A stretch of 64,000 bases of DNA from Nymphon striatum (Eukaryota). Location of the stretch: the NCBI GenBank assembly GCA_016618385.1, contig JABFOP010000357.1, positions 415,545 to 479,544 on the forward strand. The letters are read 5' to 3'. The first letter of the stretch is position 1. Every line of letters starts with the position of its first letter. Made by a program: the position numbers and the translations under genes. Shown here piece after piece: positions 12,430 to 54,690 of the stretch. The notes under the pieces were generated by a model. It was not told the origin of the DNA, ran no database searches, and was given only the letters and a program-made list of their open reading frames with translations.

Positions 12430-12530
12430 CCATTAATAAAGAGATAGATAACTAACTACCTCTTACCTCTGACAGGAATCGAACCCGCACCTCCCAGCTT
12501 GCAAGTCAGGTATGCTACCATAATACTACA
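12430..12530 (-). mobile_element. tRNA-like fragment, probably a SINE head or tRNA pseudogene (acceptor stem ACCTCTG/CAGAGGT, B box GGTTCGATTCC), in PHKG intron 11
   Basis: A good acceptor stem, D arm and T arm are read. The anticodon arm does not fold, so this is not a functional tRNA. Confidence 0.4.
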
Positions 12531-13435
12531 GAGGTAAACAGTGTGTACCATCATATTCAGATCTGTACTCTCACATTACACCACTGTAGGGAAAAGCTTT
12601 ACCAAGGTGAGAAAGAAGAGGAAATTGAAGTCGTCATTGTTACAGGACTCCACACTACAGTGATAACGTCCAGTAAAGCCGGCTCAAGTCAAACAGTGCA
12701 AATGTAATTGCAGGTGCCGAAGCTGATTGTGAGGATGAAACTGGTCTTGAGGATGAAGTTAGGTCATAAGTGAGAGTTTCCTGTGAGAAGTTGTATCAAA
12801 CATTACATCTGGATGATGTCACAGTTAAACCATAGCGCTATTCCTATATCCAAATGTATTACACAGCTGCATTTTCAATTAAACTCTCTCTTGCCTGTAG
12901 AATTTCAAACCGTCAATATGTAGTCCCTCATTCAATATCTTACATTCCTCGTCCTAATAACCGAACCTCGATCAAGTAGCTCATTCATCAAATTTATAAA
13001 ACCAAACATGCTACAATTGGCAACCCTGGCGTGATGTTTGCCACAAAGTTGACCTGTGAGAGTCTGTAACCATTTGGAACAAAGCTAGAAGAATGTGGAA
13101 TTTGTAGGCAGACAGACAGCAACCAGCTGGAAAGTTTTCTTTGACAGGAATGGCATTATCCATGTCCGATTTCACAGGGTCTCCAGTGTGAACGTACGTG
13201 GGACAGGATCATTTATCCTACAATGAATTTATTTTCCAATACAATACAAGACGCGATAGACGAGATATTTAATCAATATGCAAATGAAACCTAGGGTGAG
13301 TTGCTATACAAATCAGAATATTCAATTTTATTCAAATAAATAGGGTCACCAGTTGTAGCGCAATGTAGGTGCAGGTCACTCTAGTTCCACTAGTTGTGGA
13401 AAGTGACTCAGCCATTGTAGCAATGACTAGCTTAA

Positions 13436-18999: not shown

Positions 19000-19930
19000 T
19001 AAAACCACTAAGGTTTACTACTAAGGTTTAGTGGGACACTACTAAGGTTCATTTCGGCTCGCCATCTAGCGGATTTACCGGTATTTAACAAAGGCTAAAA
19101 GAAGGAAAACTTCGAAATCAAATCACCTGCTACCTTGCAAGTTTGGCTTGTTGAAGCAAAGGTTAGACCCCAGTCCCAGCAAACAGGAGGGGGCTATGCT
19201 TGTACCGGCTTGTACCCAGTATTTCAAAGCACCCCTATCTAAGGCATTTGCCAATTTTTCTACCCCCTATTACGGGCTTATATCGCAATTTTCCACCCCA
19301 TTTCTAGGGGGTTCAGGGATTCATGTACCCCCTTTCTAGGGTATCACACATATCAAGAATTTATAAGACCCAAGAATATGTGTGAAATACACACCTGTAC
19401 TTGCACAATTATGAACCTTCGGTTCTATTTTCTGCTTAATGGTGGCGCATGGTAATTCATTCTAATTTCGATTTTATATGTGATTTATGCCATTTGGTGA
19501 CATTATTTGCGTTTTGCCGGTTTATTTACATTCGGTGATAACCACTAATCATTTTTAGTAATTCTGACATTTAACACTTTTTTGAACTTTTATTTAAGCC
19601 TTTTAAAATTCTGACATCTGACATTGGCACCCTCCTTACCCCCCCTCATATAAGGATGAGTTAAAGTTTCAATTTTTAACAAAAAAAGGGATAGGTGAAA
19701 TTGGGAATAAAAACTTGGCAACTATATGTGGGAACTAACTCGGGCATGCATCTTTGAAATAACACCCCCTTTTTAATTTCTCGGGGTTTGATCTTAAAAT
19801 TAACCCCCTATTTTTGATTTCTCGGGGATTTTTCACCAGAGTTTTGCCTTGGAAATACCCCACCATTCCCCAGAAAATCGGAACGCGCATGCGGCCCCTA
19901 AATGTACTTGAGTGGGGGGAGGGGCGCGGG
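19000..19930 (-). repeat. Complete copy of a repeat family of about 900 bp, which contains the GGGGCCGCATGCGCGTTCCGATTTTCTCGGGG block and an internal 37-bp minisatellite
   Basis: It is the reverse complement of the copies at 22370..22880 and 33790..34400. Confidence 0.7.
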
Positions 19931-20195
19931 GGTTAGACCCACGGCCTATAACTGTGGTTGGCGTCAGCAAGGGCATGCGGCCATGAACATCCCGAACATC
20001 CCTGCTACAAATTTTAAATATGGAAATGTCGTCGACACTTGTGGAACATTACAATTCGTCCACTGGTAAAATAATAATAAGTTAGGCCATACCTTGGGAT
20101 AATAACGGCTGCGAGAGAGAAAATAATATTTTTTTATATAATATTTGACATATTTTCATTTTTACTTTATCTACATAAATAAACTATTATCTGTG

Positions 20196-20216
20196 GTGTG
20201 TGTGTGTGTGTGGGTC
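20196..20216. repeat. (TG)n microsatellite
   Basis: Read directly. Confidence 0.9.
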
Positions 20217-21086
20217 TAGTTAGTTTTATTATTTATTAGATATTCTACCTAAATTTGGTTGATTTATTGTCCAGTTGTTTTTATTTTTTTGTTTTTATCT
20301 TTATAATGTAGACGATCGAATTAAGGTAAAATGATGACCAACCCGGAATTAAATTGTGTAAAGCCAAATTGTGTATCATTAGAAGCGCAATTTAAAGGGG
20401 ACATATGTACTCAAAAAAAAGTGTTTGTTATAATAATCTATGATCCCGCTAATGCATCCTGTGTAGCGCCATTAGCGAGTGACGTCATCGGTTAGAATGC
20501 TGAGTCGGTCGCCATACATATACATACATAGATCCTGTGGTCGCAAGAAAAATGGCCATGCCCTTTTTCTTGCGAAGTGCGACCTTCCTCCACAGCTGTA
20601 TCTCGAGAACTGTTAGACATAAGAGGTTGCTTGACCGCTTAAAATGTGCGGAATAGCCACATTATGTGGGGTCAGTAATTGAGTTGTTAAGTGTGACGTA
20701 AATGATGACGATTTACCACTTCCGGGTCCCAGTGGGGGCGAATAAAGATGAAATGATGACCAATCAGGAATTAAATTGTTTAAGCCATATATGGTATGTG
20801 AGAACCTGTGAGGAGTGTTTTAGCTAAAGAATAGATTAAAGCTTTATAAACAACTCAGGCTTTATTATACTCAAAACTGAGGTACATTATAAAAGTAAAA
20901 AGGCAGCAGACAATAATGACAAGTAAGTGAATTTACAAACAGTTTGATGGAGTATATATGAAAAACAAGACATAGTAATTAGAATAGGTGAATAAAATTA
21001 AAGTTGCAAGAGGGGTCTACTGAGCAGTGAGCAGCAGTGAGAATCCTCACATTCACCCCCACAAAAATAAATGTTCGCAAGCGTAC

Positions 21087-21765
21087 TCAGTAGGGTACTG
21101 CATCGCCGTAACGTTCAGGGGCCTTTCTAGACCTCTGGGATCGACGAGGACCCTCGTTCAAAGCAACACTTTCAGCATTGGCTCGGCGTTCGGAGTGGTC
21201 CTCAGAATGAGAAAGAGTTGGTAAATTTTCGACTGGCGAGTTGATGAATTCTGGTTCTGTTGAGCCTTGTGTAATGGGCGAACTTTTAGGCAGAACCAAT
21301 GAGTCTACTTCATCCTGTAGCTCAACGTCTAGCGTTTCTTTATTTCCGGTAGATGGAGATGGGCAAGGGGCTAGATCCGATGTTGTGCTCTCACGACCAT
21401 CGCGATGACGAATGTGAGCGTAGGTCTGGTTAGCATCTAGAAGCATAACTTGGTCACATAATGGATCTTCTTTTGATCTGACAAAACGCCTTAGTAATAC
21501 AGGCCCTTCAGATAAGAGCCAGGAGGGCATTGAAGACCCAGTCATTGCACGTCTGGGAAATTTAAATATCCTTTCATGAGGAGTTTCGTTGGTTGCGAGA
21601 CATATTAGGGACCGGACTGAATGGAGAGCTCCGGCTAAGACAGATTCCCATTGAGATTCGGGCAGCGATCGACTGTGCAAAATCAGTTTAATTGTCCGCC
21701 AAACCGTCTGGTTAATACGCTCATACTGCCCATTTCCTTGAGGGTGGTAGGGTGAAGAATAGTAA
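21087..21765 (-). mobile_element. Retroelement integrase (rve core C-terminus plus downstream region) fragment (..YYSSPYHPQGNGQYERINQTVWRTIKLILHSRSLPESQWESVLAGALHSVRSL..)
   Basis: ORF 21087..21680(-) plus an upstream in-frame extension. It has the hPYHPQ.NGQ.ER.NqTl signature of retroviral-type integrases. It is flanked by about 80-bp direct repeats at 20975 and 21765. Confidence 0.7.
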
Positions 21766-22369
21766 TTAGAATAGGTGAATAAAATTAAAGTTGCAAGAGG
21801 GGTCTACTGAGCAGTGAGCAGCAGTGAGAATCCTCACATGGTATCGTTAGAAGCGCTATTTAAAACACTTTAAGAATATGTAATTCCGCATTTTGGGGGC
21901 ATTTGGCCAAACAGAAATATAGACTTATTCGTAAATGGAGGCTGTTTGCCTTTAACATTTAATTAGTTGCATTCGATTTAACTAAAAGTAAAAATATATT
22001 TTAATTTTTGGGTGAACGACACAAATAAACCGATACCGTAAAGGCTCATCCGGAGTCGTCCTCCATCTTCCTATTTAAACTTTTAAAAGACTTGGAGGAA
22101 AAAATCAGCTGAAGTACACCGATTTCTCAAGAAGAGGTGAAACCCTCTCGTCTAAGCTGTAACAAAAAAAACAAGTAATGATGCAGTAGCAAAGACATGA
22201 AGCTCGTTTATTTAAAGATTTGCGGTCACTTCTTCTTTATGAGGTAAGTGTTTTGGGATCAGCTATAGATTCCACAAATTTCCTACTTTGGTCTGTCTAC
22301 TACACCTGTTGCTCCTACTATGACTGGTATAACTTCTACCGTTTTGTTCCACATCTTCTGGCATTCAAT

Positions 22370-22880
22370 CTGCAGGTCCACTCAAGTACATTTAGCGGCC
22401 GTATGCGCGTTCCGATTTTCTCGGGGAAGGTGGGGGTATTTCCAAGGCAAAACTCGGGTGAAAAATCGCCGAGAAATCAAAAATACGGGGTTAATTTTAA
22501 GATCGAACTCCGAGAAATTTACAAAAGGGGAGAAATTGAAATTTTAACTCATTCTTATATAAAAAGGGGGGGGGGTTACCAATGTCAGATGTTAGTTCAA
22601 AAAAATTTTAAATGTCAGAATTACTAAAAATGAGTAGTGGTTATCACCGAATGTAAATAAACCGGCAAAACGCAAATAATGTCACCAAATGGCATAAATC
22701 GCATATAAAATTGAAATTAGAATGAATTACCGTGCGCCACCATTAAGCAGAAAATAGAACCGAAGGCTCATAATTGTGCTTTTGTACAGGTGTACTTTTG
22801 TACAGTTGTGTATTGCACACATATTCTTGGGTCTTATAGGGGGGTTAAAATAGTTTAATGTTTTGTCCACATACTTGCTG
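22370..22880 (+). repeat. Partial copy of the same repeat family, inverted relative to 19000..19930
   Basis: Direct sequence comparison. Confidence 0.7.
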
Positions 22881-23258
22881 AGCAGCTGAGCTTCTCAGTA
22901 GCTTTTTTTCCGAATGTTGTAGTCGCTCGGGATTGATACATCTGTTAGGAAGCACCTTCTAGAGTTCTTTTCCTTGATGACTATGTCTGGCTTGTTGCAA
23001 GGGATGTGCATATCTGTTTGGATCTGCGAGTCCCACAATGCTGTTACATCCTCATTCTCAACTACACTATCTGGATTGTGCTCAAACCAGATGTGGGTTT
23101 GCACTGTGATGCCATAGTGATTGCAGATATTCAGATGAAGCTCAGCAGCCCCTTTGTTGTGCCTGTCAAGATATTTGCCTGGTGCTAGAATTTGACACCC
23201 TGCCATGTGTTCAGTTGTTTCTGGAATCTGGGGACACATCCTACATTTGTCAATGTCC

Positions 23259-23404
23259 ACTGCCGGATTTACCCTTGCTGAGGCCCTAAGCTATATCAGA
23301 ATTATATCTGAATATCTGAAGGATATCTGAAGGAGGCTGAGGCCCCTGGAGGCTTGAGGCCCTAAGCTATAGCTTTTTTAGCTTAGAGGTAAATCCGGCC
23401 CTGT
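23259..23404. mobile_element. Second copy of the hAT-like MITE (CAGGGCCGGATTTACC family) with a degraded left TIR and an 8-bp TSD with one mismatch (CAATGTCC / CAGTGTCC)
   Basis: The sequence matches 31369..31536. Confidence 0.65.
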
Positions 23405-23512
23405 CAGTGTCCCCTACTTTCATAATATGTTTCCCGTAGTATCTGGTATTGAGGACCGGGTCCTGGGCAGCTGTAATCAGGTTTTCAGTCTCACCTTAAT
23501 AATAATAATGTT

Positions 23513-24093
23513 TATCACATAATAGGGCGGTTATTCTACCGATCTCAGTGGACATAAAAATGGTATAAACACACGTGTAAAAACGTTTTTTAAAACGATT
23601 AACTTCTTAACGGTGAGAAATGTTTTTAATGGGCGACCGATTTTAATTGACAATAATCTTGAACAATGACAAATGGTTCTTGATAGTTTTCGTAATGGTT
23701 TTCCACTTTACTCAGATGTTTTTATTGCATTTGACTTGACCGGGTCCCCATTTTAATGGCTTGACCGGAGGGCTTCAATAGTTTCATTTAATTTATTTAC
23801 GATCATTTTAAAGAGGCGACAGACCTGGAAAATGTTTATAATGATTTGGCCAGAGGGCTCTTTGATAAAACCTTACACTTTTCTTTATACATTTGTTATA
23901 AGCTGAATCTATTTTAAATTAATTTAAATTAATTTTCAAAGCTATCTATTGATTATGTGATGTCCACGTCGTATACAGAATATATGACGGGCACTCATCA
24001 CGTATCCTTTATATACTTTTTTCTTGAAACCGGTCCCTATATTCGAAAGAGGCAACCCCCTCCCCCATAAAACAAATCCTGGATACGGGCATG
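23513..24093 (+). repeat. Copy of an interspersed repeat of about 600 bp (TATCACATAATAGGGCG....CCTGGMTACGGGCATG)
   Basis: It is about 90% identical to 28723..29333. A partial copy lies at 34530..34681. Confidence 0.75.
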
Positions 24094-24692
24094 GTTAAAG
24101 AGTTACAAGCAGTTTCCTTCGAATTATTTTACAGCATTTTGCAATTATTTTTAAACTTTTAATGACTATATTTCATTACAGAATTAAAATAAATAGCAAT
24201 AATGATTATTGACAAATAGGGAGGGAATAAAACATTTTTGTAAATTTTTAAATCTGTACTTATTTGACCTTTGACCTCTGACCATATCCAGCAGCTGTGC
24301 AACGCAAGACTCACTTTTCTGAATACGTCTTAGTATGATCTATTCCAAAAATACCAAGCAGACACGTGGTCATTTTATGCAGATAAATCACCCCTGGATC
24401 TCATATCCTAACGGTCACTGAATTTTATATTCGGTTTATCACACAACCGACAGATAGCTTCAAAAATTAATTTATAAATTAAAATAGATTTTGAAATTGA
24501 TTCAACTTGATACATGCAGTAAAGCTACACAACCACTCACACAGTAACAGGTATAAGGTACATTATAGGGGGACATTATAGGCCCCGGGCAAAACAGGCA
24601 AAAGTTACAACCAATTATTGTTTGTGAAATGTTTCAGAGTTACAGAAAAAAAGCAGTCAATCAGTATATTGTAGTTATATCACACAACCTTT

Positions 24693-25238
24693 GCTTTATT
24701 GCATGCATTAGGGGGTTGTATATTTCTTGTATTAGGACACGTCCCTATATATATCGTATAAGGAACACGTTCTATATTGGTGTCCAATTACAGACACAGG
24801 AAGTCTGAGATTTTGAATATTGCCTACCACGACTTTATTTTCCATTTTTTATACGCCGCTTCTCTAGTTTCACTTATCTAGGCATGGACTCATTTTTGTT
24901 TATATCGTAATACATCTTTCTCTCTTTTCTCTTTCTTTTTTCTTTTTTCTCTTCCTCTCTCTATTTCATACTTTCTAACCGAGTTCTCGGATTTCATTAA
25001 ATGTTTGAAACTCAATAGCCTACATTTCCCCTTCTTCACAATTTTCTTCTTTTTTTTTTTAGCTTGACTGGCACAAAATAAATCATTTACTAAGGCATTA
25101 ATAAATTCATTTTCGAAGCTACCTGTCGGTTGTGCGATAAACAGAATATAAAATTCGTGCCCGTTGCTTATGAGATATATGGAACTCGTAAGCAACGAGC
25201 ACCTCATTCCATATCCTCTATATATACCTCATACGTAC
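24693..25238 (+). repeat. Copy of a repeat of about 550 bp (contains ..CTACCTGTCGGTTGTGCGATAAACAGAATATAAAATTCGTGCCCGTTGCTTATGAG.. with an internal hairpin). Other copies lie at 34730..35068, 35069..35600 (tandem) and 5618..5720 (a fragment in PHKG intron 6).
   Basis: Direct comparison. ORFs 24890..25207(-) and 34644..34970(-) are low-complexity readthrough of this repeat. Confidence 0.7.
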
Positions 25239-26567: not shown

Positions 26568-28722
26568 TGTCTAGTTGATGTGCAAAGGGAAAACCTTTAA
26601 TATTAAAGTTTATTTTGAAACTACATAGATAAAATAAGATTTAGGGATTTTTAGGTGGAAGCCGATCCTTTCTAACAAATGTTTACTGTAACAGAGGTGT
26701 TATTCGGTGGATAACACCGCTTAATAATTGTGGAATTCGGTGCGGGTGTGTAATATCATCTCATTGGAATATCCTTGGATGGTGATAGTACACAGTAGTA
26801 GTGTGTATATCATTTGGATGGAAAAAATAAGGTTATTCCTAGGCAATAATATTAAACAGTAAAGACAAAGATCTTTGATTATAATAATAATAGGAATCAA
26901 ATATTCCTCCGCGCACAGTAACTGGACGCCATTGTTTTCTTGCGAGCTAAATACACCGAACGCTTTATTAAATATTATATATTGACATTATGATTATGAA
27001 TTTCAACCAATATGTACCATGATATTATGATGGCTTCGCTATGTCGTGGATACAACCACTAAGTCTGTACGCTTGTGTTATAATTATCTTGAAGAAACAT
27101 AATAAAAGTCCATTTTTAAAGTTCCGTTTTTGGATATATATGCTAGTGTTGTTGAATGATCTGCTGTTGTCTTCTTTATCCTCTAAAGGGTTTGTATACC
27201 CATGGTAGTGTTGTTGAGAGCCTGTAATGTGAGATAGTGGACAGAAACAGATTTCGAGTTTGTACACACAATGCTATTTGGACGTCGCATCCCTGTGACC
27301 CAGTGTTCTTTGCAGTGTTTACAGAAGCAAGTCTCAGAGGAGTTTGAAAGTGGGTAACTCTTTGATTTACACATATTTGGGTGTGAGGAGTGAAATATGT
27401 CCATAATAGAATAATTGAGGGCTCTTCTATATTAGTTAGATTTGCAGGAATAGTTAACATTTTGAGAATACAAAAAGTATGAAGGGCTATCATCGAGGAG
27501 AATGTAGTGAAAGGGAGAGGTTGCAGGGGATATTTTAAGCTAACCCCGGTTAGGGAACTTGGGAATGAAGAGGGGAGATGATGTAGGTACGGTACGTCCC
27601 GTGCCCGTCCCGTGGTACGTACGTGTGAGAGTATAAATCTATGGTGAGAAGAATAGATTGAAATAGAAAATAGAGGAGGAAATAAGTAAAGAATGCCAAA
27701 GTTTGTTGAAGAAAGATTGACTTGTTGGGTAAATCTTCTATGTTAGCTAGAGGGTCACACACAAATATATATACAATTTACGCTTCAGGGCAATACAGAT
27801 AATGCTGGATCCCATGCAAACAATAGCAAGCACCTATATATAAAATAGTCCGTCGGCTGGAGGGGCTCACCTTGCACCCCGCACCCCCCCCCCTAGAATC
27901 TACAAAGTAATGCTTTTCTGGAAGGTTGTTATGTATATTTAATTATTCTATATATGTTACCAAGCGAAAAATTGGGTCTCACTAACTTTTCTAGGTAGTT
28001 TACATGTGACTGTCACCACGAAGTGTGCGAAAAAAAATGGGGGTAGGGGAAATTAAAATGACCATAGCTCCAAGTAGAGTGGGTCTATAATAATGGTTGA
28101 CCCCTCAAAATGTGTCTTTGGGTCCCCCCTACACTTTGAACTTAGTTTTATGCAATTTAGATTAATTAGTAGGTCACCAGAGGTCAAAAGGTCACCGATT
28201 TCTGGGGTTGCTTGAAATTGGACACTCCTTCGTGAATTAAACTAAAAACAGATGATAACATGCAATACTTTTATTATAACACTTGGAATTCTTTATTTTA
28301 TATAAGATTTGACAATTATAAATCACCCATGTTTAATTATTTTAGTACAAAATACATACCTTTTTATTCAATGTCCTGTATTTTTTGGGACTCGGACGAA
28401 CCCTAAGTTATTTTAGGACTTTTCTCGTGGCGAGGAAGCCATTTGTGAGTGCATGTATGACTGGATGACCTCATGCCCGTAGCCAGGAGGGGGTGTTTAA
28501 GGTGCCCGGGCACCCCTCCAAAACAGCCAAAGGTCCACTTTGAAAAATTACACTTGAATATGCACTTTTAAAAAATGTTTCAAAAATACATATTTTTGGA
28601 TTCGCGCTCATTTTTGTGTTTCTGGTCAATTTTAATTTCCTGTCGTGAGCTTGCTTGTCCAGTTGAGCTGTAGTTGCAATTTTGTCCCTATAACTTGTCA
28701 TCATTGCAAATAAGTAATGTGT

Positions 28723-29333
28723 ATCACATAATAGGGCGTGTAAAAACGTGTTATAAAACGATTAACTTCTTAACGGTGAAAGATGTTTTTAATGGGTAGT
28801 CGATTTTAAGTGACAATAATCTTGAACAATGACAAATAGCTGTTAATAGTTTTCTTAATGGTTTTCCACTTTACTCAGATGTTTTTATTGCATTTGACTT
28901 GACCGGGTCCCCCTTTTAATGGCTTGACCGGGGGCTTCAATAATGTAATTTTTATTATCACTTCAAATAATACACATGATAAACACGTGATAAAAGTAAA
29001 AAGTAGATTTAATTTATTTACGAGCATTTTAAAGAAGCGACAGATCGGAAAATGTTTTTAATGATTTGGCCGGGGGCTCTTTGATAAAACCTTGCAATTT
29101 TCTTTATACATTTGTTCAAACTGAATCTATTTTAAATTAATTTAAATTAATTTTCAAAGCTATCTATCGATTATTTGATAAACAGAATACCAAACTCGTC
29201 CACGTCGTATACAGAATGTATGACGGGCGCTCATCACGTATCCTCTATATACTTTTTTCTTGAAACCGGTCCCAATATTCGAAAGAAGCACCCCCCCCCC
29301 CATAAAAAATAAAAAATCCTGGCTACGGGCATG
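28723..29333 (+). repeat. Second full copy of the 600-bp repeat
   Basis: Direct comparison. Confidence 0.75.
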
Positions 29334-29469: not shown

Positions 29470-30700
29470 CCAGTAGATAACCCAACTTTCGCTCCCGTAC
29501 AGTCTGTACGGGAGCGAAAGTTGGGTTATGACGAAGCTAGACAGGAGACGTGTGGATGCATTCGAGCTGTGGTGCTGGAGGAGAGTACAAAAAATACCTA
29601 AAATAACCAATACTGCTGTACTAATGGCAGCCTCACACCCAATGCCACTTGAGGCCAAAGCAGTAAAATGAAATTATCATATTTTGGACATGTGGTGCGG
29701 GAAAATGGGTTGCAGAAACAGGGGCGGATCTAGGGGGTGGATTGGGTGGCTAGCCACCCCCCCCCCTTGCAACTCAAAAATATTCCTGTATAAACATATT
29801 ATTTGTCTTTTTAACGCCCAACGTCATTATTAAATGAACTTCTTAGACGGCAGCATTTGAGCAACAACCTCAAAAAGGTTTCTTCATCTTCATCAGTTAC
29901 ATATTTGATTCAGCATCATGCAGACCTAGATGCAGACACTACATTTTTCCCAAATGTCCCAAGGGAGTTGCCCAGAGTTGCTGAGCATTCTTGCTGTATT
30001 GCCACTTGGAAGCTGTGAAGCCGAAAGGTCTTTTTCTTGTGTGCGGCGTATTCACTCGATTCACTCATAGCTTCGGTCATCTATGTCCACAGATAGATTA
30101 TCAGACCTTTGTGTGATACTAGTGCCATGCATGGTAATATCCCTGTTTCCATTGAGGAAATTGTCAACCGCTTTATTACATTACATCCACGTCGAATGCA
30201 GGGACAAAGTCTTTTCTCGTTGTAGTAGGCCTACTTTTGTCAAACTGCAACATCATGCTTTTTGTGACTACTAGTCTACCATTAATTTTGAACTTAAGGA
30301 TTTAGACGTAACAGTATACTTGAAGTAATGAATTATACTTATAGCAATGGTATATTTTGTGTGTTATTTTTTAAATATTATTATTATGTTTTTTATTGTA
30401 ATCTACAAAATCGAAATGGTTTATCTTTAATTTTGAGTAAAATTTAGAAACCAAAATATGATCTGTTTCACAAAAACGCATGCCGATAGGTGAAGGAAAA
30501 TTCCTAGATCCGCCCCTGAGAAAAGTTTAATGTTGGGAAAGATGGAAGGTCACCGAAGTAGAGGAAGACCACGGACAAGATGGATGGATGGCGTGTTAAA
30601 AGCAACTGGTAAAAGATTGGAAGAGCTAATGTTGGCGGCACAAGACAGAGTTAGCTGGAGGTCAACAGTTCATCAGGTCACCAATGGAAACTAACAACAA
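29470..30700 (+). mobile_element. LINE ORF2 C-terminal fragment (..RRRVDAFELWCWRRVQKIPKITNTAVL... / ..GKMEGHRSRGRPRTRWMDGVLKATGKRLEELMLAAQDRVSWRSTVHQVTNGN*), split by the hAT insertion at 29719..30518
   Basis: The conserved EGxRxRGRPxxRW motif is present. The two halves are contiguous once the hAT element is removed. Confidence 0.65.
29719..30518 (+). mobile_element. Non-autonomous hAT element of about 800 bp with TIR CAGGGGCGGATCTAGG. It carries a decayed hAT C-terminal dimerisation domain (..LPLGSCEAERSFSCVRRIHS..LRSSMSTDRLSDLCVILV..) and is inserted into an RTE-type LINE fragment.
   Basis: TIRs are read directly. The internal frame translation resembles the hAT ERSFS...RLS..L motif. The flanks are the two halves of a LINE ORF2 C-terminus. 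Confidence 0.7.
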
Positions 30701-31234: not shown

Positions 31235-32150
31235 GATACTCCACTCATTGGGTGTAAAAAAAAAATTCCCAATCCATGACACATATCGCTGGTTGGGAGC
31301 AAAAACATCGTATGTACCATTTTATTCAACTATAAGTCTATGACATAATCTTGTTTGGCAATGAACATCAGGGCCGGATTTACCTATAAGCTAAAAAAGC
31401 TATAGCTTAGGGCCTCAAGCCTCCAGGGGCCTATCAGGGCCCCATTATTCATTCCATATATGTGCACTGTATAATAGAAAAGGGCCACACAATTCAGATA
31501 TAGCTTAGGGCCTCAGCAAGGGTAAATCCGGCTCTGATGAACATGGATTCAATTTTTGCATGGTCGATGTGATTTTCGGCCTTGGGAGTGACACTAGAAG
31601 AGGGAAAAAAGATCGTATGTGCCAGAATATTCTTTTATTTAGAGTGAAAACATCGTAACTGAATTATTTGTGTGAATTCTTGCAAATGAGTTACGATGTG
31701 TTTGCTCTCAGCCAGCGATATATCAAAAAACAATTCCTGATTTGTAAACATTTTTTCTACTTCATTTAATATTTTTAAACGTATTTTAAAATCACCTACT
31801 TTGGATATCACGGCAGATGCCCACCGTACAACCGCATTTATTCAAGCCAAGGAGGAGGGTAAATGATGGTGAGCAGCCTCGGCTCGAATACATATGCTGT
31901 ATCCCTCTTCCACTAGCATAATTCTGAAAAGTATCCTCATCACTCGACGAATCTATATAAACGTCAGCCATCTTGATGAACTACTGAGCATTGAACACGT
32001 CACATATGTGACGTAACAATCAAAAATGGAAGATGCTGTGATATCCAAAGTAGGTGATTTTAAAATACGTTTAAAAATATTAAATGAACTAGAAAATATT
32101 TCAAAAAATCAGGAATTGTTGTTTGATGTATCTATATTTATAATTCTCAA
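31235..32150. mobile_element. Second copy of the 13436 MITE family, lacking its 3' TIR. It carries a nested hAT-like MITE at 31369..31536.
   Basis: The 5' TIR and internal blocks match 13436..13988. Confidence 0.6.
31369..31536. mobile_element. hAT-like MITE of 168 bp with TIR CAGGGCCGGATTTACC and a perfect 8-bp TSD ATGAACAT. It is nested in another MITE.
   Basis: TIR and 8-bp TSD are read directly. An 8-bp TSD is the hAT hallmark. Confidence 0.8.
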
Positions 32151-33789: not shown

Positions 33790-34400
33790 GGTCACCTCCC
33801 CCCCCCCCACTCAAGTACATTTAGGGGCCGCATGCGCGTTCCGATTTTCTCGGGGAAAGGGGGGTATTTCCAAGGTAAAACTCGGGTGAAAAATCCCCGA
33901 GAAATCAAAAATAGGAGATTCATTTTAAGATCGAACCCTGAGAAATCAAAAATGGGGGTTAATTTTAAGATTGAACCCCGAGAAATCAAAAATAGGGGGT
34001 TAATTTTAAGATCGAACCCCGAGAAATTTAAAAAGGGGGGAGGGTGTTATTTCAAAAAATACATGTCCGAGATAGGAGGTCTACATAGTTGCCAAGTTTT
34101 TGTTTCCAATTTCATCTATCCTATTTTGGTTAATTTCATTATGTTTCAGACTGTGTACTGTGACAAGTGTCCACTCAAATACATGTATTAAAACTATCTA
34201 AAATGCCCTAGATTGTTAGAAAGAAAGGGGGTTAAAATATTTGAATCCCCTAGGAAGGGGGTGCCTGAATCCCTGAACCCCGATAAAGCCCGTGATAGGG
34301 AGGTAGAAAATTTGGCAAATGCCTTAGATAGGGGGTGCTTTGAAATATTGAGTACAAGCTGTGGCCCTCCCCTGTTTGCTGGGACTGGGGGGTCACTTCA
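33790..34400 (+). repeat. Third copy of the repeat family, with a 4-unit 37-bp minisatellite (CCCCGAGAAATCAAAAATAGGGGGTTAATTTTAAGATCGAA) at 33893..34040
   Basis: Direct sequence comparison. The other copies have about 1.5 minisatellite units. Confidence 0.7.
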
Positions 34401-34729
34401 AAAGTTTTTTTACTGCTCTTCTTCTGCCTTACAAGTTACAGCTTTTTATTCAACTAATTTACATACTTGAACAAGTTTTTGAAAGATGCTTTCAAACCAC
34501 TATTTCACATTTTATTGAAGATCTAATTTTATCACATAATAGAGCAGTTATTCTACTGATCTCAGTTGACATAAAAATGGTATAAACACACGTGTAAAAA
34601 CGTGTTTATAAAGCGATTAACTTCTTAACGGTGAGAGATGTTTTTAATGGATAACCGATTTAAAGTGACAATAATCTTGAACCAGGAGAGTTTGGGGGAG
34701 ATTTTTATTGTACTTCAAGTACAATAATC

Positions 34730-35118
34730 TCTTTCTTTTTTCTTTTTCTCTTCCTCTCTCTATTTCATACTTTCTAACCGAGTTCTCGGATTTCATTAAA
34801 TGTCTGAAACTCAATAGCCTACATTTCCCTTTCTTCACAATTTTCGTTTTTTTTTTTTTAGCTTGACTGGCACAAAATGAATCAATTTTAAAATCTATTT
34901 TAATTAATAAATTCATTTTTGAAGCTACCTGTCGGTTGTGCGATAAACAGAATATAAAATTCGTGCCCATTGCTTATGAGATGTATGGAACTCGCCAACT
35001 TAGTCCATGTATCTCGTAAGCAACGAGCACTCGATCATTCCATATCCTCTATTTATCGCACAACCTTGACTTTATTGCATGCATTTGAAGTTCTTATATT
35101 TCCTGTATAAGGACACGT

Positions 35119-35152
<34 letters not shown>

Positions 35153-35600
35153 TATAAGGACACGTCCCTATATTGGTGTTGATTACAGACACAGGGAGTC
35201 TGAGATTGTGAATGTTGCTTACCACAAATTTATTTTTCCTCTGTTTTTTTTTTCCCCCTTTCAAACATGTCGCTTCTGTATTCTAGACATGAATCATTTT
35301 TGTTTTTATCGTAACTTATCTCTCACTAGTCTGTCACTCTTTCTGTTTCTCTTCTTCTCTCTATTTCATACTTTCTAACCGAGTTCTCGGAATTCATTGA
35401 AGTGTTGAAACTTGTCCCCCTCCCGTTCTCCCCCTCTCACCCTCTCAACAATTTATATTCTATTTTTTAGCTTGACTGGCACAAAACGAATCAATTTTTA
35501 AATCTATTTTAATTAATAAATTCATTTTCAAAGCTACCTGCCGGTTGTGCGATAAACAGAATATAAAATTCGTGCCCGTTGCTCATTATACAGGTTACTA
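34730..35600 (+). repeat. Two tandem copies (a partial plus a full copy) of the 550-bp repeat, including a (TA)15 microsatellite at 35127..35156
   Basis: Direct comparison with 24693..25238. Confidence 0.7.
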
Positions 35601-39406: not shown

Positions 39407-39849
39407 GTGATCAGCGAAATGATTTTTTACAGAAGAGGATGTCTATCATTTATGATTATAACGAGTGTTTCATTTATATTTGGAATGTTTTTTCACCGCT
39501 CATTCTTCTGCAATAGAATTGTGCTCTATAGCCCTTTGGAGGTTCCTAATAGAGGATTTCAGAATGATATTTATCCGCAAGCTGTCAAGATGGTAACTAA
39601 ATCCAATAATGTTGAAGATGTTGAGCCTGTTATTATGAAAAGAAGCATGTCTTCAGTTGCTAAGTCATCATTTCACAAGAAACTTGTGCATTTAGACTTG
39701 AAGGGAGCACCTCCAAAGATAAGCTATCTTGAGAGTCTGTTGCCTTTGTTAAAGAAACAAGGTGCTACAGGGTTGATTATTGAATACGAAGATTCATTTC
39801 CATTTGAAGGTGAAATTTATGAATTAAGTTCTACAAAGCCTTATTACAA
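39407..39849 (+). CDS. HEXDC: Hexosaminidase D-like (GH20 family) first coding exon. It has an N-terminal hydrophobic extension that is a possible signal anchor, then [56 protein letters not shown].
   Basis: Long ORF. It matches the HEXDC N-terminus ([44 protein letters not shown]). The donor is aa|gtaagt at 39850. Confidence 0.8.
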
Positions 39850-41228
39850 GTAAGTATTACATTATAAAACTTTTTCAAATATGCAAATAAGTGGAATAAG
39901 ATAAATGCGGATAAATGAAATGAAAATACTGGCAGGAAAAAAAAAAATTGAGACAAACTGACATCTTGTAAAATATAAAAAAATAAGCAAACCAAATAAA
40001 AATATTGGCCCAAATAAAATCACTTTGGGTGTTCAACTTGGGTTTGAGGTCACAGATGTAGAGCATTTCATATATCAGGCAATCAAACTTAGTCTTACAT
40101 TTTTTCAGCACTTTTAATCAATGGGGTCAATGGATCAGTGAGTGTTATAGGGTTCGTACGGGTCCTTAAAAACTATGAAAGTCCATAAATGTTTATCTGC
40201 TGAAATTAAGTACATAATTTGAGAAATATCCAGAAATTTTAGGAAATATTTCAAAGTCAATGAAAGTCCTTAAAAATCTTATTTCTATTCTCATCAAAGT
40301 CCAGATTAGCAAATTTGTAGTACGGAAATAAATATTTTCTTCATCCGTAAATTCCGCTGCACCCGGCCTAAACAAATTCCGCTGTCGCACCTCGTGTCAT
40401 TGTTTACCTTCAAAATGCCTAAGATGACGTGATCGGTTCGGGTAATCTCTGCACACCAATGGTGATCGCTATATTGTCCCCAAGTGTGTTTCCTTGTTCA
40501 ACCACCTATAGCACAGAACAGTGGATTAAGTCACCATTTCTCACAAAGAAGCGCTGCATTTCAGTCGGATTTACACGGCCTCCAACTTGCCAAAATAATT
40601 TCCGAAGTATCTGACATGGAATGCAGGTCCGACAAATTGGAATATAATGGAACACTACGACAATGGTCCTTAAAAAACTGTTGGATTTGATCCTTGAAAG
40701 TCCTCAGAAGTCCTTAAATTTTGCTTCCAGTTTTGAGTGGGAACCCTGTGTTAGGTATATTCTCAATATAAGTAAAAATAACAAAACTAGATATAATACT
40801 AAATAGCAATATGAATTTTAACAAAAGAGGTATATGTTGCCCTCTGATCTCTACTACCTGTGATTATACTTTGTAGATAGATCTCTTTCTCTCAAATGTA
40901 GTTGTTGATGTAAAAGGTAAAGTCTGTGTGCTTCTTGTTCTTTTCTCTGAAAAACTGGCTATATGCTCCTAGAATAATTTGAAAGTATTATATGAATATT
41001 ATGTATATACAAGTTTGTATCAGAAATAACCCAACGTAGAATTGACCTTCTATGATAATCTTGTCCATTTATCATATCAGATGATTTTGCCAGAACTATT
41101 TTGACACACTGAACGGACTGTGGCTTATTTGGGATAATATTATGTTATATCTTTTTTATGTTGATTCTGAGTCTGATAAATTTTTTTATAGAATTTTATA
41201 CAATTAATTATTTTTTCGTTTTTATCAG

Positions 41229-41535
41229 AGTGGAACTGAAGAATTTTCTCCGAAGTGCATCAATATTGGGATTTGACATCATTCCTTTAGTGCAAACATT
41301 TGGTCACATGGAATTTGCATTGAAACTTCCCCGTTTCAAGAAATTAAGAGAAAACTCATTATATCCCAATAATCTGTGTCCATCTCAAATGAAATCAATG
41401 GAACTAGTAAAAGAAATAATTTCCCAGGTTGTGTCTTTTCACAAAGAGTTCCGAATTAAACAATTGCATATTGGATGTGACGAAGTGTATCATTTGGCCG
41501 AATGTGAAATTTGTTCTAAAAGTGCTTGCCAATAG
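41229..41535 (+). CDS. HEXDC: HEXDC-like exon 2 ([34 protein letters not shown]...KQLHIGCDEVYHLAECE..). The reading frame fails near 41515 and hits a stop at 41533.
   Basis: ttatcag acceptor at 41228. It matches [33 protein letters not shown]...RLHIGCDEVYYLGEGE. Confidence 0.7.
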
Positions 41536-41782
41536 TCTATATGGAAATTGGACTTTGTTTCTGAAGCATGTGAAAGCTGTTGCTGAGCATGTGCAAAGTG
41601 TACACTGGCTTGACTCCGATCATTTGGGATGACATGCTTCGTAAGATTCCTGAAGAAACCATCAGAGTGCACAATGTACAAGATGTTGTGGAGATAATGG
41701 TTTGGAATTATCATCCGCATGTTCCCTGAGTCTCTTAATGAGGTAACTTGGATGAAATATAAGAATTTAGTTTCGCCATAAA
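41500..41782 (+). pseudogene. HEXDC: HEXDC-homologous stretch read only by hopping frames 1 to 2 to 0 to 1 to 2, with four +1 shifts. The fragments VLANSLYGNWTLFLKHVKAVAEHVQSV, then LTPIIWDDMLRKIPEETIRVHNVQDVVEIMVWNYHPH, then MKYKNLVSP, then FRHKMWAAS are all homologous to consecutive HEXDC segments.
   Basis: Overlapping ORFs in three frames (41158..41535, 41429..41632, a third in frame 0, 41783..). Each continues the HEXDC alignment (..LSHMRAVASGV.., ..VTPLVWDDMLRDLPED.., ..LLMQKYRRCGFPQLWAASAFKGATG). Confidence 0.6.
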
Positions 41783-42517
41783 ATGTGGGCTGCTAGCTCT
41801 TTTAAAGGAGCAACCGGAGTTGATCAAATGATGACATCTCCTCAGTATCACCTTAGAAATCATAAGATATGGATGGAAACTGCATTCAACCACAGTCACG
41901 ACTTTTCTTTTAAAGGTATTGCACTCACTGGATGGCAACGTTATGATCATTTCTCTGTAATGTGTGAATTACTTCCTGTTGCAATACCAAGCTTAATTTC
42001 TAATCTTCGTTATTTGAATAATCCTGATTTGTCTGACGAACAACTGATAGATGAAGTTCGGGATGCTTTGAAGTGCAACAACCCGCTTCCTTTAGATATT
42101 CCAAATTCTACTTTTATTGCTGAATGTTCTTTTCCTGGAAGTTCTATTTACAAGTCAATTTTGGAAGTGTATAATTTGAATCTTAATTATTTTTACATAA
42201 TAAAAAACAGTCATATGGCTGGTTGGATGACTAGTTATCAAGTGCTCAATTCGTATAGTAACCCTGACCATGTTAGGCTTGCCATGAGAGGCATTCGAGG
42301 AATAACTCAACGATATGCTTTTCTGGCAACAAGTTTACCACAGCAGCTCAGTGAAATTTACGAACAAGAAACCATTGATGAATGGTATTTTATGTACTTT
42401 GGAAATATTAAAAGTGATTTACGAAAGTTGGAATGGCATGCTGAAAAACTGATGTCACAAACAACTTGGCCTCGAAGATATTTCTCGCATAAAGATCCTG
42501 TTTCTACAATATGAAAA
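41771..42517 (+). CDS. HEXDC: HEXDC-like C-terminal region in one open frame (FRHKMWAASSFKGATG...[26 protein letters not shown]...TWPRRYFSHKDPVSTI*)
   Basis: A 243-aa ORF that matches HEXDC LWAASAFKGATG...[25 protein letters not shown]. Confidence 0.75.
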
Positions 42518-44617: not shown

Positions 44618-44843
44618 TTATGTTGTTGTTGTTGTTGGGTTTTACGACCCACCGATACCTTTAAGGCTCATTCGGAGTCAGTCCTCTATCTTCCTATTTA
44701 GACTTTTAGAAGGGTTGGAGGAAGAAGAGATTATCGATAGGAAAGAATCAGCTGAGGGGAAGAATCCCCAACCTACCTTACAGCAAATCGGAGCTAATTA
44801 ATGCACCGATTTCTCAAGCAGAGGTGAAACCCTCTCGTCTAAG
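44618..44843 (-). mobile_element. SINE-like retroposon insertion with a (TTG)n / (CAA)n tail, flanked by a 15-16 bp TSD (G[TC]GAAGGTCAGTTATG). A related partial copy lies at 22030..22180.
   Basis: The direct repeat of the flanking target is read at 44602-17 and 44844-59. A long TSD is typical of LINE-mediated retroposition. Confidence 0.65.
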
Positions 44844-45432
44844 CTGTAACGGCGAAGGTCAGTTATGACTTCATCACGACCTTTCCATGACTAGTGTTTA
44901 TTTATCACAGATATAAAAATTGAAACAATGTGCTTAGTTAGGGGTTACGCTGGCGTCTGCCATTTCCGCATTTTGTGATTTTTTTATCAATTTGGCATAA
45001 AAAAAATACGACTGGCGAATTTCTTTTGGCATAGAAGTTTTTTTTTTTTTTTTATTATTTTCTTGCCACCAAGGCAAGACATTAAAGAAATGTACAGAAA
45101 ATACAACAGATGTAATGAATTTTGTGGCAAAACAGTAAAAGTTATATAAGTGACAATACTTTAATACAACCGCTTTATGAAAAAACTTAATAAAAATACG
45201 AAAGAGTTTCAAATCGAAATAGAGTAGAGTGAAAATTCAAAACACTAAAAGTAGTCATTTTTTCCCAGGAAATGCACCAGAGGCCACCATACGACTTCCG
45301 ATTTTCAAAAATGTTCTGGGGGGGGGGGGGGGCGACAGGCCCTAAAGTATATTTGGCTAATAAAAATCAAAAGCCAGGGGAACCCCTGCTTAGTAGAAAT
45401 CATAATTTATAATTTCTTAAAATTGACTCCAT

Positions 45433-54229: not shown

Positions 54230-54690
54230 AAACAAAAAAGAGACTCTTGAACTCATTGGTTTTTAGCATTGCTACCTACGGGTCAGAGTGTTGGGTACTG
54301 ACAAAAGCAGATAAAAAGAAAATTACTGCATTCGAATTGTGGTGCTATCGTCGGCTACTGCGCATCAGTTGGACCGAAAGAAAGACTAATAAATGGGTAT
54401 TAAGCAGAATGAATTGTAATGAAAGAGTATTATTAACATCAATAGACCAAAGGAAGATGACATTTGTAGGACATGTCCTCAGAAAACATAATTTTGAAAA
54501 GAATTTATTGACTGGATCAGTTTACGGAAAGAGAGGTAGCGGGAGACCAAAAACTCGGTATAGTGATAACATACATGAATGGAAGAAGTTTTGTTGAGAT
54601 TTGCAGATTGGCACAGGAAAGAGATGAATGGAGGGCCACGGCGGTTCAAATCGAACCTTCTGTTTCATGATGATGATTCTTTTAGCTAAT
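54230..54690 (+). mobile_element. RTE-type LINE 3' fragment (ORF 54247..54597: ..ATYGSECWVLTKADKKKITAFELWCYRRLLRISWTERKTNKWVL...GKRGSGRPKTRYSDNI..) ending in a GATGATGATG tail. It lies in a HIRA intron.
   Basis: It carries the conserved LINE ORF2 C-terminal motif, the same family signature as 25681..26567. Confidence 0.7.

Follow-up and report, generated by a model that had tools for sequence, protein, structure and literature searches.

Independent insertions of transposable elements as the probable origin of an inverted repeat pair in Nymphon striatum

The repeat pair and the LINE-like reading frame split by its right arm

The window (the whole stretch of 64,000 nucleotides that was analysed) contains two copies of an interspersed repeat that face each other in opposite orientation, a third copy of the same family further along, and a LINE-like reverse transcriptase reading frame in which the right copy is embedded. 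An earlier note, made from the letters alone, had described the pair as arms of roughly 900 bp; their opposite orientation is borne out, but the arms are shorter than claimed, namely 760 bp on the left and 483 bp on the right, and the sequence at 19000-19170, which matches nothing else, lies outside the left copy. The relevant features are as follows.

19161-19170, no strand assigned: left copy of the target site duplication of the left arm, GGTTAGACCC, abutting the end of the arm homology
19171-19930, minus strand (in the convention of the earlier note): left arm, an apparently complete 760-bp copy identified by its matches to the right arm and the third copy, with module C at 19171-19337, module B at 19362-19675 and a head with 41-bp subrepeats at 19676-19930
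19931-19940, no strand assigned: right copy of GGTTAGACCC, on the inner side of the pair, abutting the end of the arm homology
22283-22381, minus strand: C-terminal end of the LINE-like reverse transcriptase reading frame (ending in ...VDLQIECQKMWNKTVEVIPVIVGATGVVDRPK and a stop), inside the supposed cargo, identified by tblastn and in the restored reading frame; includes the left GTCCAC (22376-22381)
22382-22864, plus strand: right arm, a truncated 483-bp copy without module C inside the LINE-like reading frame, delimited by the excision test
22865-23495, minus strand: continuation of the same LINE-like reading frame outside the pair, beginning with the right GTCCAC (22865-22870)
33797-34390, plus strand: third copy, identified by homology to the arms, with 3.6 copies of the 41-bp subrepeat and without module B

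When the arms are compared in opposite orientation, 19362-19675 corresponds to 22838-22533 with 80% identity over 332 gapped columns (93.4% if gaps are ignored), and a second block, 19766-19915, corresponds to 22530-22378 with 91% identity (95.3% ignoring gaps). With E values of about 1e-54 to 1e-91, similarity within the family far exceeds chance. The two arms are nevertheless separated by 5-7% substitutions and 44 gap columns, and they also differ in length and module content. The copies are mosaic: module B (about 310 bp) is found in the left and right copies only, and module C (about 170 bp) in the left and third copies only. Module C forms the outer end of the left copy, and these 170-190 bp or so have no counterpart in the right arm. 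From the common module B and an identity that is marginally the highest among the pairs (95.3% vs 93.0% and 90.7%), we assign the left and right arms to one subfamily. The 41-bp subrepeat is present in about 1.5-2 copies in each of the two arms, most of which is unique sequence. On the inner side, both arms stop at the sharp terminus of the family itself, at which the distant third copy ends as well; the termini of the family were defined from these three copies, all of which lie within the window. The third copy, which had been placed near 33790-34400 and was recovered at about 33797-34390, is bordered by GGTCAC on both sides, a match that is not significant on its own.

Each arm is bounded by a short direct duplication of its own. 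For the left arm, this is the perfect 10-mer GGTTAGACCC, which occurs only twice in the window, at 19161 and 19931; a 10-mer match anywhere within the 61-bp flanks is seen in about 2% of random pairs drawn from this repeat-rich window. A Pfam search of the open frames across the restored left site gave nothing that would confirm the left duplication by an empty site. For the right arm, the interrupted reading frame itself serves as an empty-site test. Excision of 22382-22870, i.e. the arm together with one GTCCAC, resulted in one uninterrupted alignment with all seven reverse transcriptase relatives tested and raised the score against P0211 from 117 to 149 bits. The relatives are colinear across the right arm with no residues missing. 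In total, the LINE-like reading frame has 2922 relatives, of which the long ones (1000-1200 amino acids) carry only RVT_1 and are matched near their C-terminus; its part outside the pair is also interrupted by a palindromic repeat of about 150 nt (about 23262-23403). Four of the six bases of GTCCAC coincide with the terminal bases of the repeat family, and the true duplication of the right arm may be only 2 nt long. A longer candidate of 13/14 nt, GTTTTGT(T)CCACAT at 22341-22354 and 22860-22872 (25 of 3000 null trials), was rejected as a chance resemblance inside the LINE-like element, since the protein-level test points to GTCCAC. The DNA immediately inside and the DNA immediately outside the right arm were thus once contiguous, which means that the arms do not delimit the 2.4 kb between them as a cargo.

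A deleted LTR retrotransposon between the arms

An integrase C-terminal fragment on the minus strand, flanked by direct repeats of about 80 bp, had already been recognised between the arms. Both observations hold: the fragment spans 21087-21758, and the direct repeats are perfect over 81 bp (20972-21052 and 21759-21839), representing a 5' LTR stub and the matching part of a 3' LTR. Together they make up a 1042-bp, internally deleted LTR retrotransposon of the Ty3/gypsy type at 20797-21838 on the minus strand, inserted into a short repeat.

20317-20396, plus strand: uninterrupted sibling of the short repeat, aligning straight across 20739-20796 and 21844-21864 and thus a paralogous empty site
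20739-20796, plus strand: left half of the interrupted short repeat, ending in TGGTA; the right half, 21839-21864, begins with the second TGGTA
20797-21051, minus strand: 3' LTR of 255 bp with TG..CA ends on the minus strand, its first 80 nt identical to the 5' LTR stub
21052-21062, minus strand: putative polypurine tract GTGGGGGTGAA (minus strand), immediately upstream of the 3' LTR, read from the sequence
21087-21758, minus strand: coding fragment of the integrase C-terminus, extending from the motif HPQGNGQYER as far as the stop codon, identified by its homologues
21759-21838, minus strand: 5' LTR stub, first 80 nt only, identical to the start of the 3' LTR at 80 of 80 positions

The element is flanked by the 5-bp target site duplication TGGTA (20792-20796 and 21839-21843). 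Its 5' LTR stub passes directly into the integrase fragment, with TCTT as microhomology at the junction, and the primer-binding site, gag, PR, RT and RH are all deleted; the copy is therefore a deletion derivative and not an autonomous member of its group. The function ascribed to the polypurine tract would follow from the standard anatomy of LTR retrotransposons. The integrase fragment has 97 homologues, many of them with PF00665 (rve), PF17921 (Integrase_H2C2) or PF17917/PF17919 (RT_RNaseH), and it corresponds to residues 187-334 of the 372-residue protein P0011 at 61% identity, i.e. to the C-terminal third. Pfam searches with the raw fragments gave no match, the integrase fragment itself being too short.

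The coding remnants in the interior between the arms consist of the integrase tail and the LINE tail only, with no remnant of a transposase, and the interior also holds fragments of other dispersed repeats. The window also carries a host hexosaminidase-D exon, which shows 80% identity to a Logan transcript from SRR24188319, its other matches lying at about 35%. A scan for bacterial promoters and terminators returned chance-level counts and is irrelevant to a eukaryotic sequence.

Origin of the inverted arrangement

Taken together, the locus is very probably a pile-up of independent transposable element insertions and not a single mobile unit, with two repeat copies that face each other by chance and a young, deleted LTR retrotransposon between them. 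Of the three explanations that the earlier note had offered, it is the coincidental nesting of insertions that the evidence supports. In the proposed course of events, two non-coding interspersed repeat copies of 0.5-0.76 kb would have inserted in opposite orientation at a distance of 2.4 kb. The left copy would have entered unique DNA, generating a 10-bp target duplication, and the right copy, truncated at one end, would have entered the C-terminal coding region of an older and already decayed LINE-like element, generating a duplication of 2-6 bp. Later, a Ty3/gypsy-type LTR retrotransposon would have inserted between both copies, into another short repeat and with a 5-bp duplication, presumably already lacking everything from nucleotide 80 of its 5' LTR to the end of the integrase core. 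As far as the order of these events can be inferred, the LINE-like element came first, the right arm and the small palindromic element then inserted into it, and the LTR element is very young.

The reading as a composite or foldback transposon, in which the inverted copies would be the terminal repeats of one unit with a 2.4-kb cargo, is already contradicted at the locus, and we regard it as highly improbable. It draws on two copies of the same subfamily that lie inverted to each other and share a module absent from the third copy, and on the 41-bp tandem subrepeats of the family, a feature that is also found in the arms of foldback-type elements. However, the two halves of the LINE-like reading frame lie inside and outside the supposed unit and are split by the right arm, and the left arm has a duplication of its own that includes a copy on the inner side of the pair. 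Moreover, no target site duplication was found outside the pair, where the earlier note had proposed to look for one and had counted its absence among the signs of chance juxtaposition; in 2251 of 3000 trials, the null equalled or exceeded the similarity of the outer flanks. Homology between the arms does not extend to their outermost sequences, and the interior offers no trace of a transposase. Finally, chance alone yields a comparable pair in about 11% of simulations (10.7% for inverted pairs whose inner gap does not exceed 2447 bp, when three copies are placed at random in 64 kb).

Two further explanations of the pair were considered. An ancient inverted duplication of one arm in situ, for instance by replication template switching, with later divergence, could account for the left and right arms being marginally the most similar pair and for their common module B, yet it has very little probability: the inner ends fall exactly on the family terminus shared with the third copy and not on arbitrary breakpoints, no flanking sequence was co-duplicated, and each arm is bounded by its own short direct duplication. 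In addition, the exact restoration of the reading frame upon excision of the right arm is characteristic of an insertion rather than a segmental copy. An assembly artefact, i.e. a false inverted join or a hairpin chimera, had been raised as well, since some assemblers and library preparations are known to fail on long inverted repeats. Artefactual foldbacks have near-identical arms that meet at or near the turn-around point, whereas the arms observed here carry 5-7% substitutions and 44 gap columns, are unequal in length and modules and lie 2.4 kb apart, with a biologically coherent insertion junction at each of them. We therefore consider an artefact extremely unlikely.

From these results we conclude that the locus represents ordinary nested junk DNA in a transposon-rich stretch of an animal genome, an arrangement of an already known kind that bears on no open biological question. 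The outcome is chiefly a negative one: what might have been a novel composite or foldback transposon is struck from the candidates, and the reason why this reading fails is given. In eukaryotic genomes that are dense in repeats, members of a common family form inverted pairs by chance, and true units can be distinguished from chance pairs by target site duplications of the individual arms and by the restoration of the host sequence that they interrupt.

The repeat family and its relation to known systems

For the arm family, we propose mobilisation by target-primed reverse transcription, as in SINEs and other non-autonomous non-LTR retroposons. This interpretation is based on a copy that is truncated at one end and yet cleanly inserted with a duplication, on the unequal lengths of the duplications (10 nt for the left arm vs 2-6 nt for the right arm), and on a run of variable length after a conserved end. 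The proposed 3' end of the family consists of a conserved ...CTTGAGTGG (also written ...AAATGTACTTGAGTGG), followed by a G-rich run of 0-15 nt whose length varies by copy. The polarity of retroposition of the left arm would then be opposite to its listed strand, with the 5' end at 19171 and the 3' end, ...CTTGAGTGG plus the G-rich run, at 19930. The family has no poly(A) or microsatellite tail, and searches of the arms with ARAGORN and Rfam found nothing, neither a tRNA-, 7SL- or 5S-like head nor that of another known RNA. A partner LINE with the same 3' end was not present in the 64-kb window. The consensus fold of the conserved end, which is based on three sequences, showed no covariation, and a protein search with the spurious open reading frames running through the arms gave no match.

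An assignment to MITEs or other non-autonomous DNA transposons was rejected. The ends of the family show only about 8 nt of weak similarity, CCCCAGTC vs CCCCACTC, and no terminal inverted repeats; the duplications are unequal, the left arm has no unusual tendency to fold on itself (z = 0.38), and a copy that has lost one terminus is nevertheless cleanly inserted. Scans of metagenomes and of viral and prokaryotic genomes for further copies with conserved arm motifs, in collections that do not include the source genome, returned nothing or chance seeds of 18-20 nt that did not extend.

Around the right and third copies, homologous upstream flanks that had been suspected by eye (...ATTCAAT...CAGGTC...) were rejected (P = 0.31 against a null derived from the window). 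Two other repeat families, X and Z, follow both of these copies in the same order. A larger repeat unit or a segmental duplication, as suggested by this shared order, gains no support from the immediate flanks, and the verdict on the locus is unaffected by it.

It is possible, if rather doubtful, that the arm family represents an undescribed type of non-autonomous retroposon from a poorly sampled animal lineage, 600-760 bp long, without a recognisable pol III head or poly(A), ending in ...CTTGAGTGG and a variable G-run and with a possible preference for GGTC/GACC targets. All three duplications (GTCCAC preceded by G, GGTCAC and GGGTCTAACC) begin with G(G)TC when read in one orientation. Even if this were true, the inverted pair would still be coincidental.

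Foldback elements such as Drosophila FB and composite transposons such as Tn10 and Tn5 resemble the locus superficially, in that inverted copies bracket DNA and the arms contain short tandem subrepeats. Unlike in these systems, the arms are separate insertions with non-equivalent outer ends, they lack a duplication that flanks them jointly, and the DNA between them continues into that outside the pair. With SINEs and other non-autonomous retroposons, the arm family has in common that it is short, non-coding and dispersed, that two copies have the same defined 5' start, and that one copy is 5'-truncated yet clean, with variable duplications and 3' runs and with microhomology at the junction. 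It differs from SINEs in its G-rich run in place of a poly(A) or microsatellite tail, in having neither a tRNA, 7SL or 5S head nor an identified partner LINE, and in its length of 600-760 bp, which is long for a SINE. The element between the arms agrees with Ty3/gypsy elements (Metaviridae) in its TG..CA LTR ends, its 5-bp duplication, the polypurine tract before the 3' LTR and its rve, Integrase_H2C2 and RT_RNaseH homologues; in contrast to them, it measures only 1042 bp, and its 5' LTR breaks off after 80 nt, where the last third of the integrase is joined to it. The locus as a whole corresponds to the nested and clustered insertions of repeat-rich eukaryotic genomes, in which independent elements lie next to or within each other, each with its own target site duplication; here, an older LINE is split by the younger right arm and the LTR element, with its identical LTR sequence, is the youngest. 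It differs from such clusters in nothing of substance, and the inverted orientation of the two arms is incidental.

Copies and character of the arm family

The two arms of the inverted structure and a third copy belong to one interspersed repeat family.

19171-19930: left arm (L), 760 bp, with module C at 19171-19337 and module B at 19362-19675
22382-22864: right arm (R), 483 bp, inverted relative to L
~33797-34390: third copy (T)

L and R align in two inverted blocks, 19766-19915 vs 22530-22378 (91% identity gapped, 95.3% ignoring gaps) and 19362-19675 vs 22838-22533 (80% and 93.4%, with 44 gap columns). The earlier note's pair of same-family copies in opposite orientation thus stands, but its arm size of about 900 bp does not. 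Nor does L begin at 19000, since 19000-19170 is part of no repeat; the copy noticed near 33790-34400 is T. The family is a mosaic of modules, with B common to L and R only, C, the outer end of L, common to L and T only, and a 41-bp subrepeat present in 1.5-3.6 copies. T contains a motif, GTCCACTCAAATACATGTAT (34169-34188), that is similar to CCACTCAAGTACATTTAG, the terminal sequence of the family itself, a hint that T's unique segment arose through partial duplication within the copy or through recombination. No further copies were retrieved from the sequence collections searched, and the family is described from L, R and T.

A protein search found no homologues of ORFs in the family, which is consequently considered non-coding; no known RNA or tRNA-like part was found in it, and it is not hairpin-like. 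Although R has lost one end, it is cleanly inserted and carries a duplication. Duplications vary in length from copy to copy, and beyond the conserved end ...CTTGAGTGG lies a G-rich run of ~15 nt in L and ~12 nt in T, which R lacks. Based on this one-ended loss, the varying duplications and the varying G-rich run, the family was somewhat more probably than otherwise mobilised by target-primed reverse transcription, in which case the conserved end would be 3' and both L and T full-length copies. The lack of a poly(A), a pol III head and a partner LINE speaks against this, and we regard the family as unclassified. The flanking duplications at 19161-19170, 22376-22381 and 33790-33795 start G(G)TC in one orientation (GGGTCTAACC, (G)GTCCAC and GGTCAC, respectively), and either a preference for certain target sites or microhomology at the junctions may account for this, three cases being too few to decide.

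Insertion sites of the two arms

For the ORF adjoining R (22895-23260, minus strand), 2922 relatives were found. It matches the long ones (1000-1200 aa) near their C-terminus, and RVT_1 is their sole Pfam hit; from this length and domain content we infer a LINE-like reverse transcriptase (RT) protein. Aligned back to the window, RT relatives run colinearly from one side of R to the other on the minus strand; the match to the relative P0240 breaks off at 22865 (residues 948-1072) and continues from 22378 (residues 1072-1098). Excision of 22382-22870, which comprises the 483-bp arm and one GTCCAC (489 nt, 163 codons), yielded one unbroken match in 7/7 relatives tested, reading ...LSKYVDLQIECQKMWNKTVEVIPVIVGATGVVDRPK*, and the score of the relative P0211 increased from 117 to 149 bits. 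Since a single match is restored in all seven, R is a separate insertion in an older LINE. The stretches immediately inside (22283-22381) and outside (22865-23495) the pair once formed contiguous DNA, and for this reason alone the 2.4-kb interior cannot be cargo bounded by R.

Of the six bases duplicated at R, four (CCAC) are identical to conserved terminal bases of the family, and the true duplication is therefore 2-6 nt with junction microhomology. A 13/14-nt similarity considered as R's duplication is due to chance, as judged from the restored LINE ORF. The same ORF is also interrupted by a ~150-nt palindromic MITE-like repeat (23262-23403, interval 23249-23411), where RT relatives skip just ~3 residues across ~160 nt; its second copy lies inverted 8 kb away (31369-31532).

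The window contains the 10-mer GGTTAGACCC exactly twice (19161-19170 and 19931-19940), directly adjoining the left and right limits of the homology that L shares with R and T. A match of this length within 61-bp flanks is found for ~2% of random pairs in this repeat-rich window, and since both copies adjoin L exactly, a chance origin is much less probable. The restored site lies outside any coding sequence, and the flanking 10-mers are the evidence for the duplication of L. Because one copy lies on the inner side of L, what follows L on the right is target DNA, outside any L-R unit.

The LTR element between the arms

The integrase-bearing piece covers 20797-21838 (1042 bp), begins with TG and finishes with CA on the minus strand, and is flanked on both sides by TGGTA.

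21838-21759, minus strand: 5' LTR stub, 80 nt, matching the first 80 nt of the 3' LTR at 80/80 positions
21758-21087, minus strand: integrase C-terminus, from the HPQGNGQYER motif, fused directly to the stub
between integrase C-terminus and 3' LTR, minus strand: purine-rich tract GTGGGGGTGAA, from the sequence
21051-20797, minus strand: complete 3' LTR, 255 bp

The fusion of stub and integrase shows TCTT microhomology. The ~80-bp direct repeats already seen around the integrase fragment are perfect over 81 bp (20972-21052 and 21759-21839), and given this anatomy they are LTR sequence, namely the 5' LTR stub and the start of the 3' LTR. The integrase C-terminal fragment itself was confirmed by homologues with rve, Integrase_H2C2 and RT_RNaseH domains; these domains and an alignment to residues 187-334 of a 372-aa integrase (61% identity) place the element with Ty3/gypsy-type elements. 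The element interrupts a copy of a further short repeat. A sibling of this repeat, 422 bp upstream (20317-20396), is unbroken, aligns straight through the insertion point and constitutes a paralogous empty site. With 0 differences in 80 nt of LTR, the element looks like the youngest insertion of the region.

Surroundings and origin of the pair

The window is eukaryotic (GC 30-40%) and dense in dispersed repeats, with retroelement fragments in addition.

12463-12536, minus strand: tRNA-Ala (TGC) gene (ARAGORN)
23501-24093, 28709-29333, 34524-34687: repeat family X
24678-25225, 34728-35056, 35054-35586: repeat family Z
29473-29535, both strands: palindromic hairpin
31717-31815 and 32034-32132: inverted arms of 99 nt, 91% complementary, 218 nt apart
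39407-42514 (~39.4-42.5 kb), plus strand: hexosaminidase-D-like host gene, intron-split exons, by protein homology
54247-54597, plus strand: 116-aa ORF containing …YGSECWVLTKADKKKITAFELWCYRRLLRISW…

A host-gene exon best matches a Logan transcript protein (SRR24188319, 80% identical), all others being at ~35%, so the window comes from a sparsely sequenced animal lineage. X and Z follow downstream of both R and T in the same order and orientation, an arrangement that might stem from a larger repeat unit or from an ancient segmental duplication. The adjoining flanks show no significant similarity, and an apparent resemblance between those of R and T failed a null test. The inverted arms at 31717-32132 look like a small MITE or hairpin element. 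At 29473-29535, microRNA precursor models stayed below threshold (33 bits vs a gathering score of 80), and this hairpin is most likely transposon-derived, not a curated miRNA. The 116-aa ORF has no Pfam match and may resemble the segment that follows the RT domain of non-LTR retrotransposons.

Both arms end inward at the family's own sharp terminus, which is shared with T, and this argues against an arbitrary segmental inverted duplication as their source. An assembly artefact had also been considered, but arms that differ by 5-7% substitutions, many indels and different modules are probably not what an assembly foldback would produce, and the underlying sequence observations are real. R has nothing equivalent to module C, which forms the outermost part of L. 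The interior holds no notable ORF besides the LTR element and the LINE tail; other dispersed-repeat fragments lie at 22029-22163 (matching 44651-44850) and 20683-20727 (matching 47214-47170).

A composite or foldback transposon carrying cargo, as proposed in the earlier note, is contradicted by the LINE continuous across R, by L's own inner duplication and by the unrelated outer flanks, in which the suggested search for a target-site duplication gave no similarity above random expectation (the null did as well or better in 2251/3000 trials). Of simulations with three copies at random positions within 64 kb, 10.7% gave an inverted pair at least as close and 5.5% this particular arrangement. The remaining proposal, coincidental nested insertions, agrees with R lying inside a LINE, L having its own duplication and the LTR element lying inside a short repeat. 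We conclude that the structure is a chance juxtaposition of independent, nested transposable element insertions, all of known kinds.
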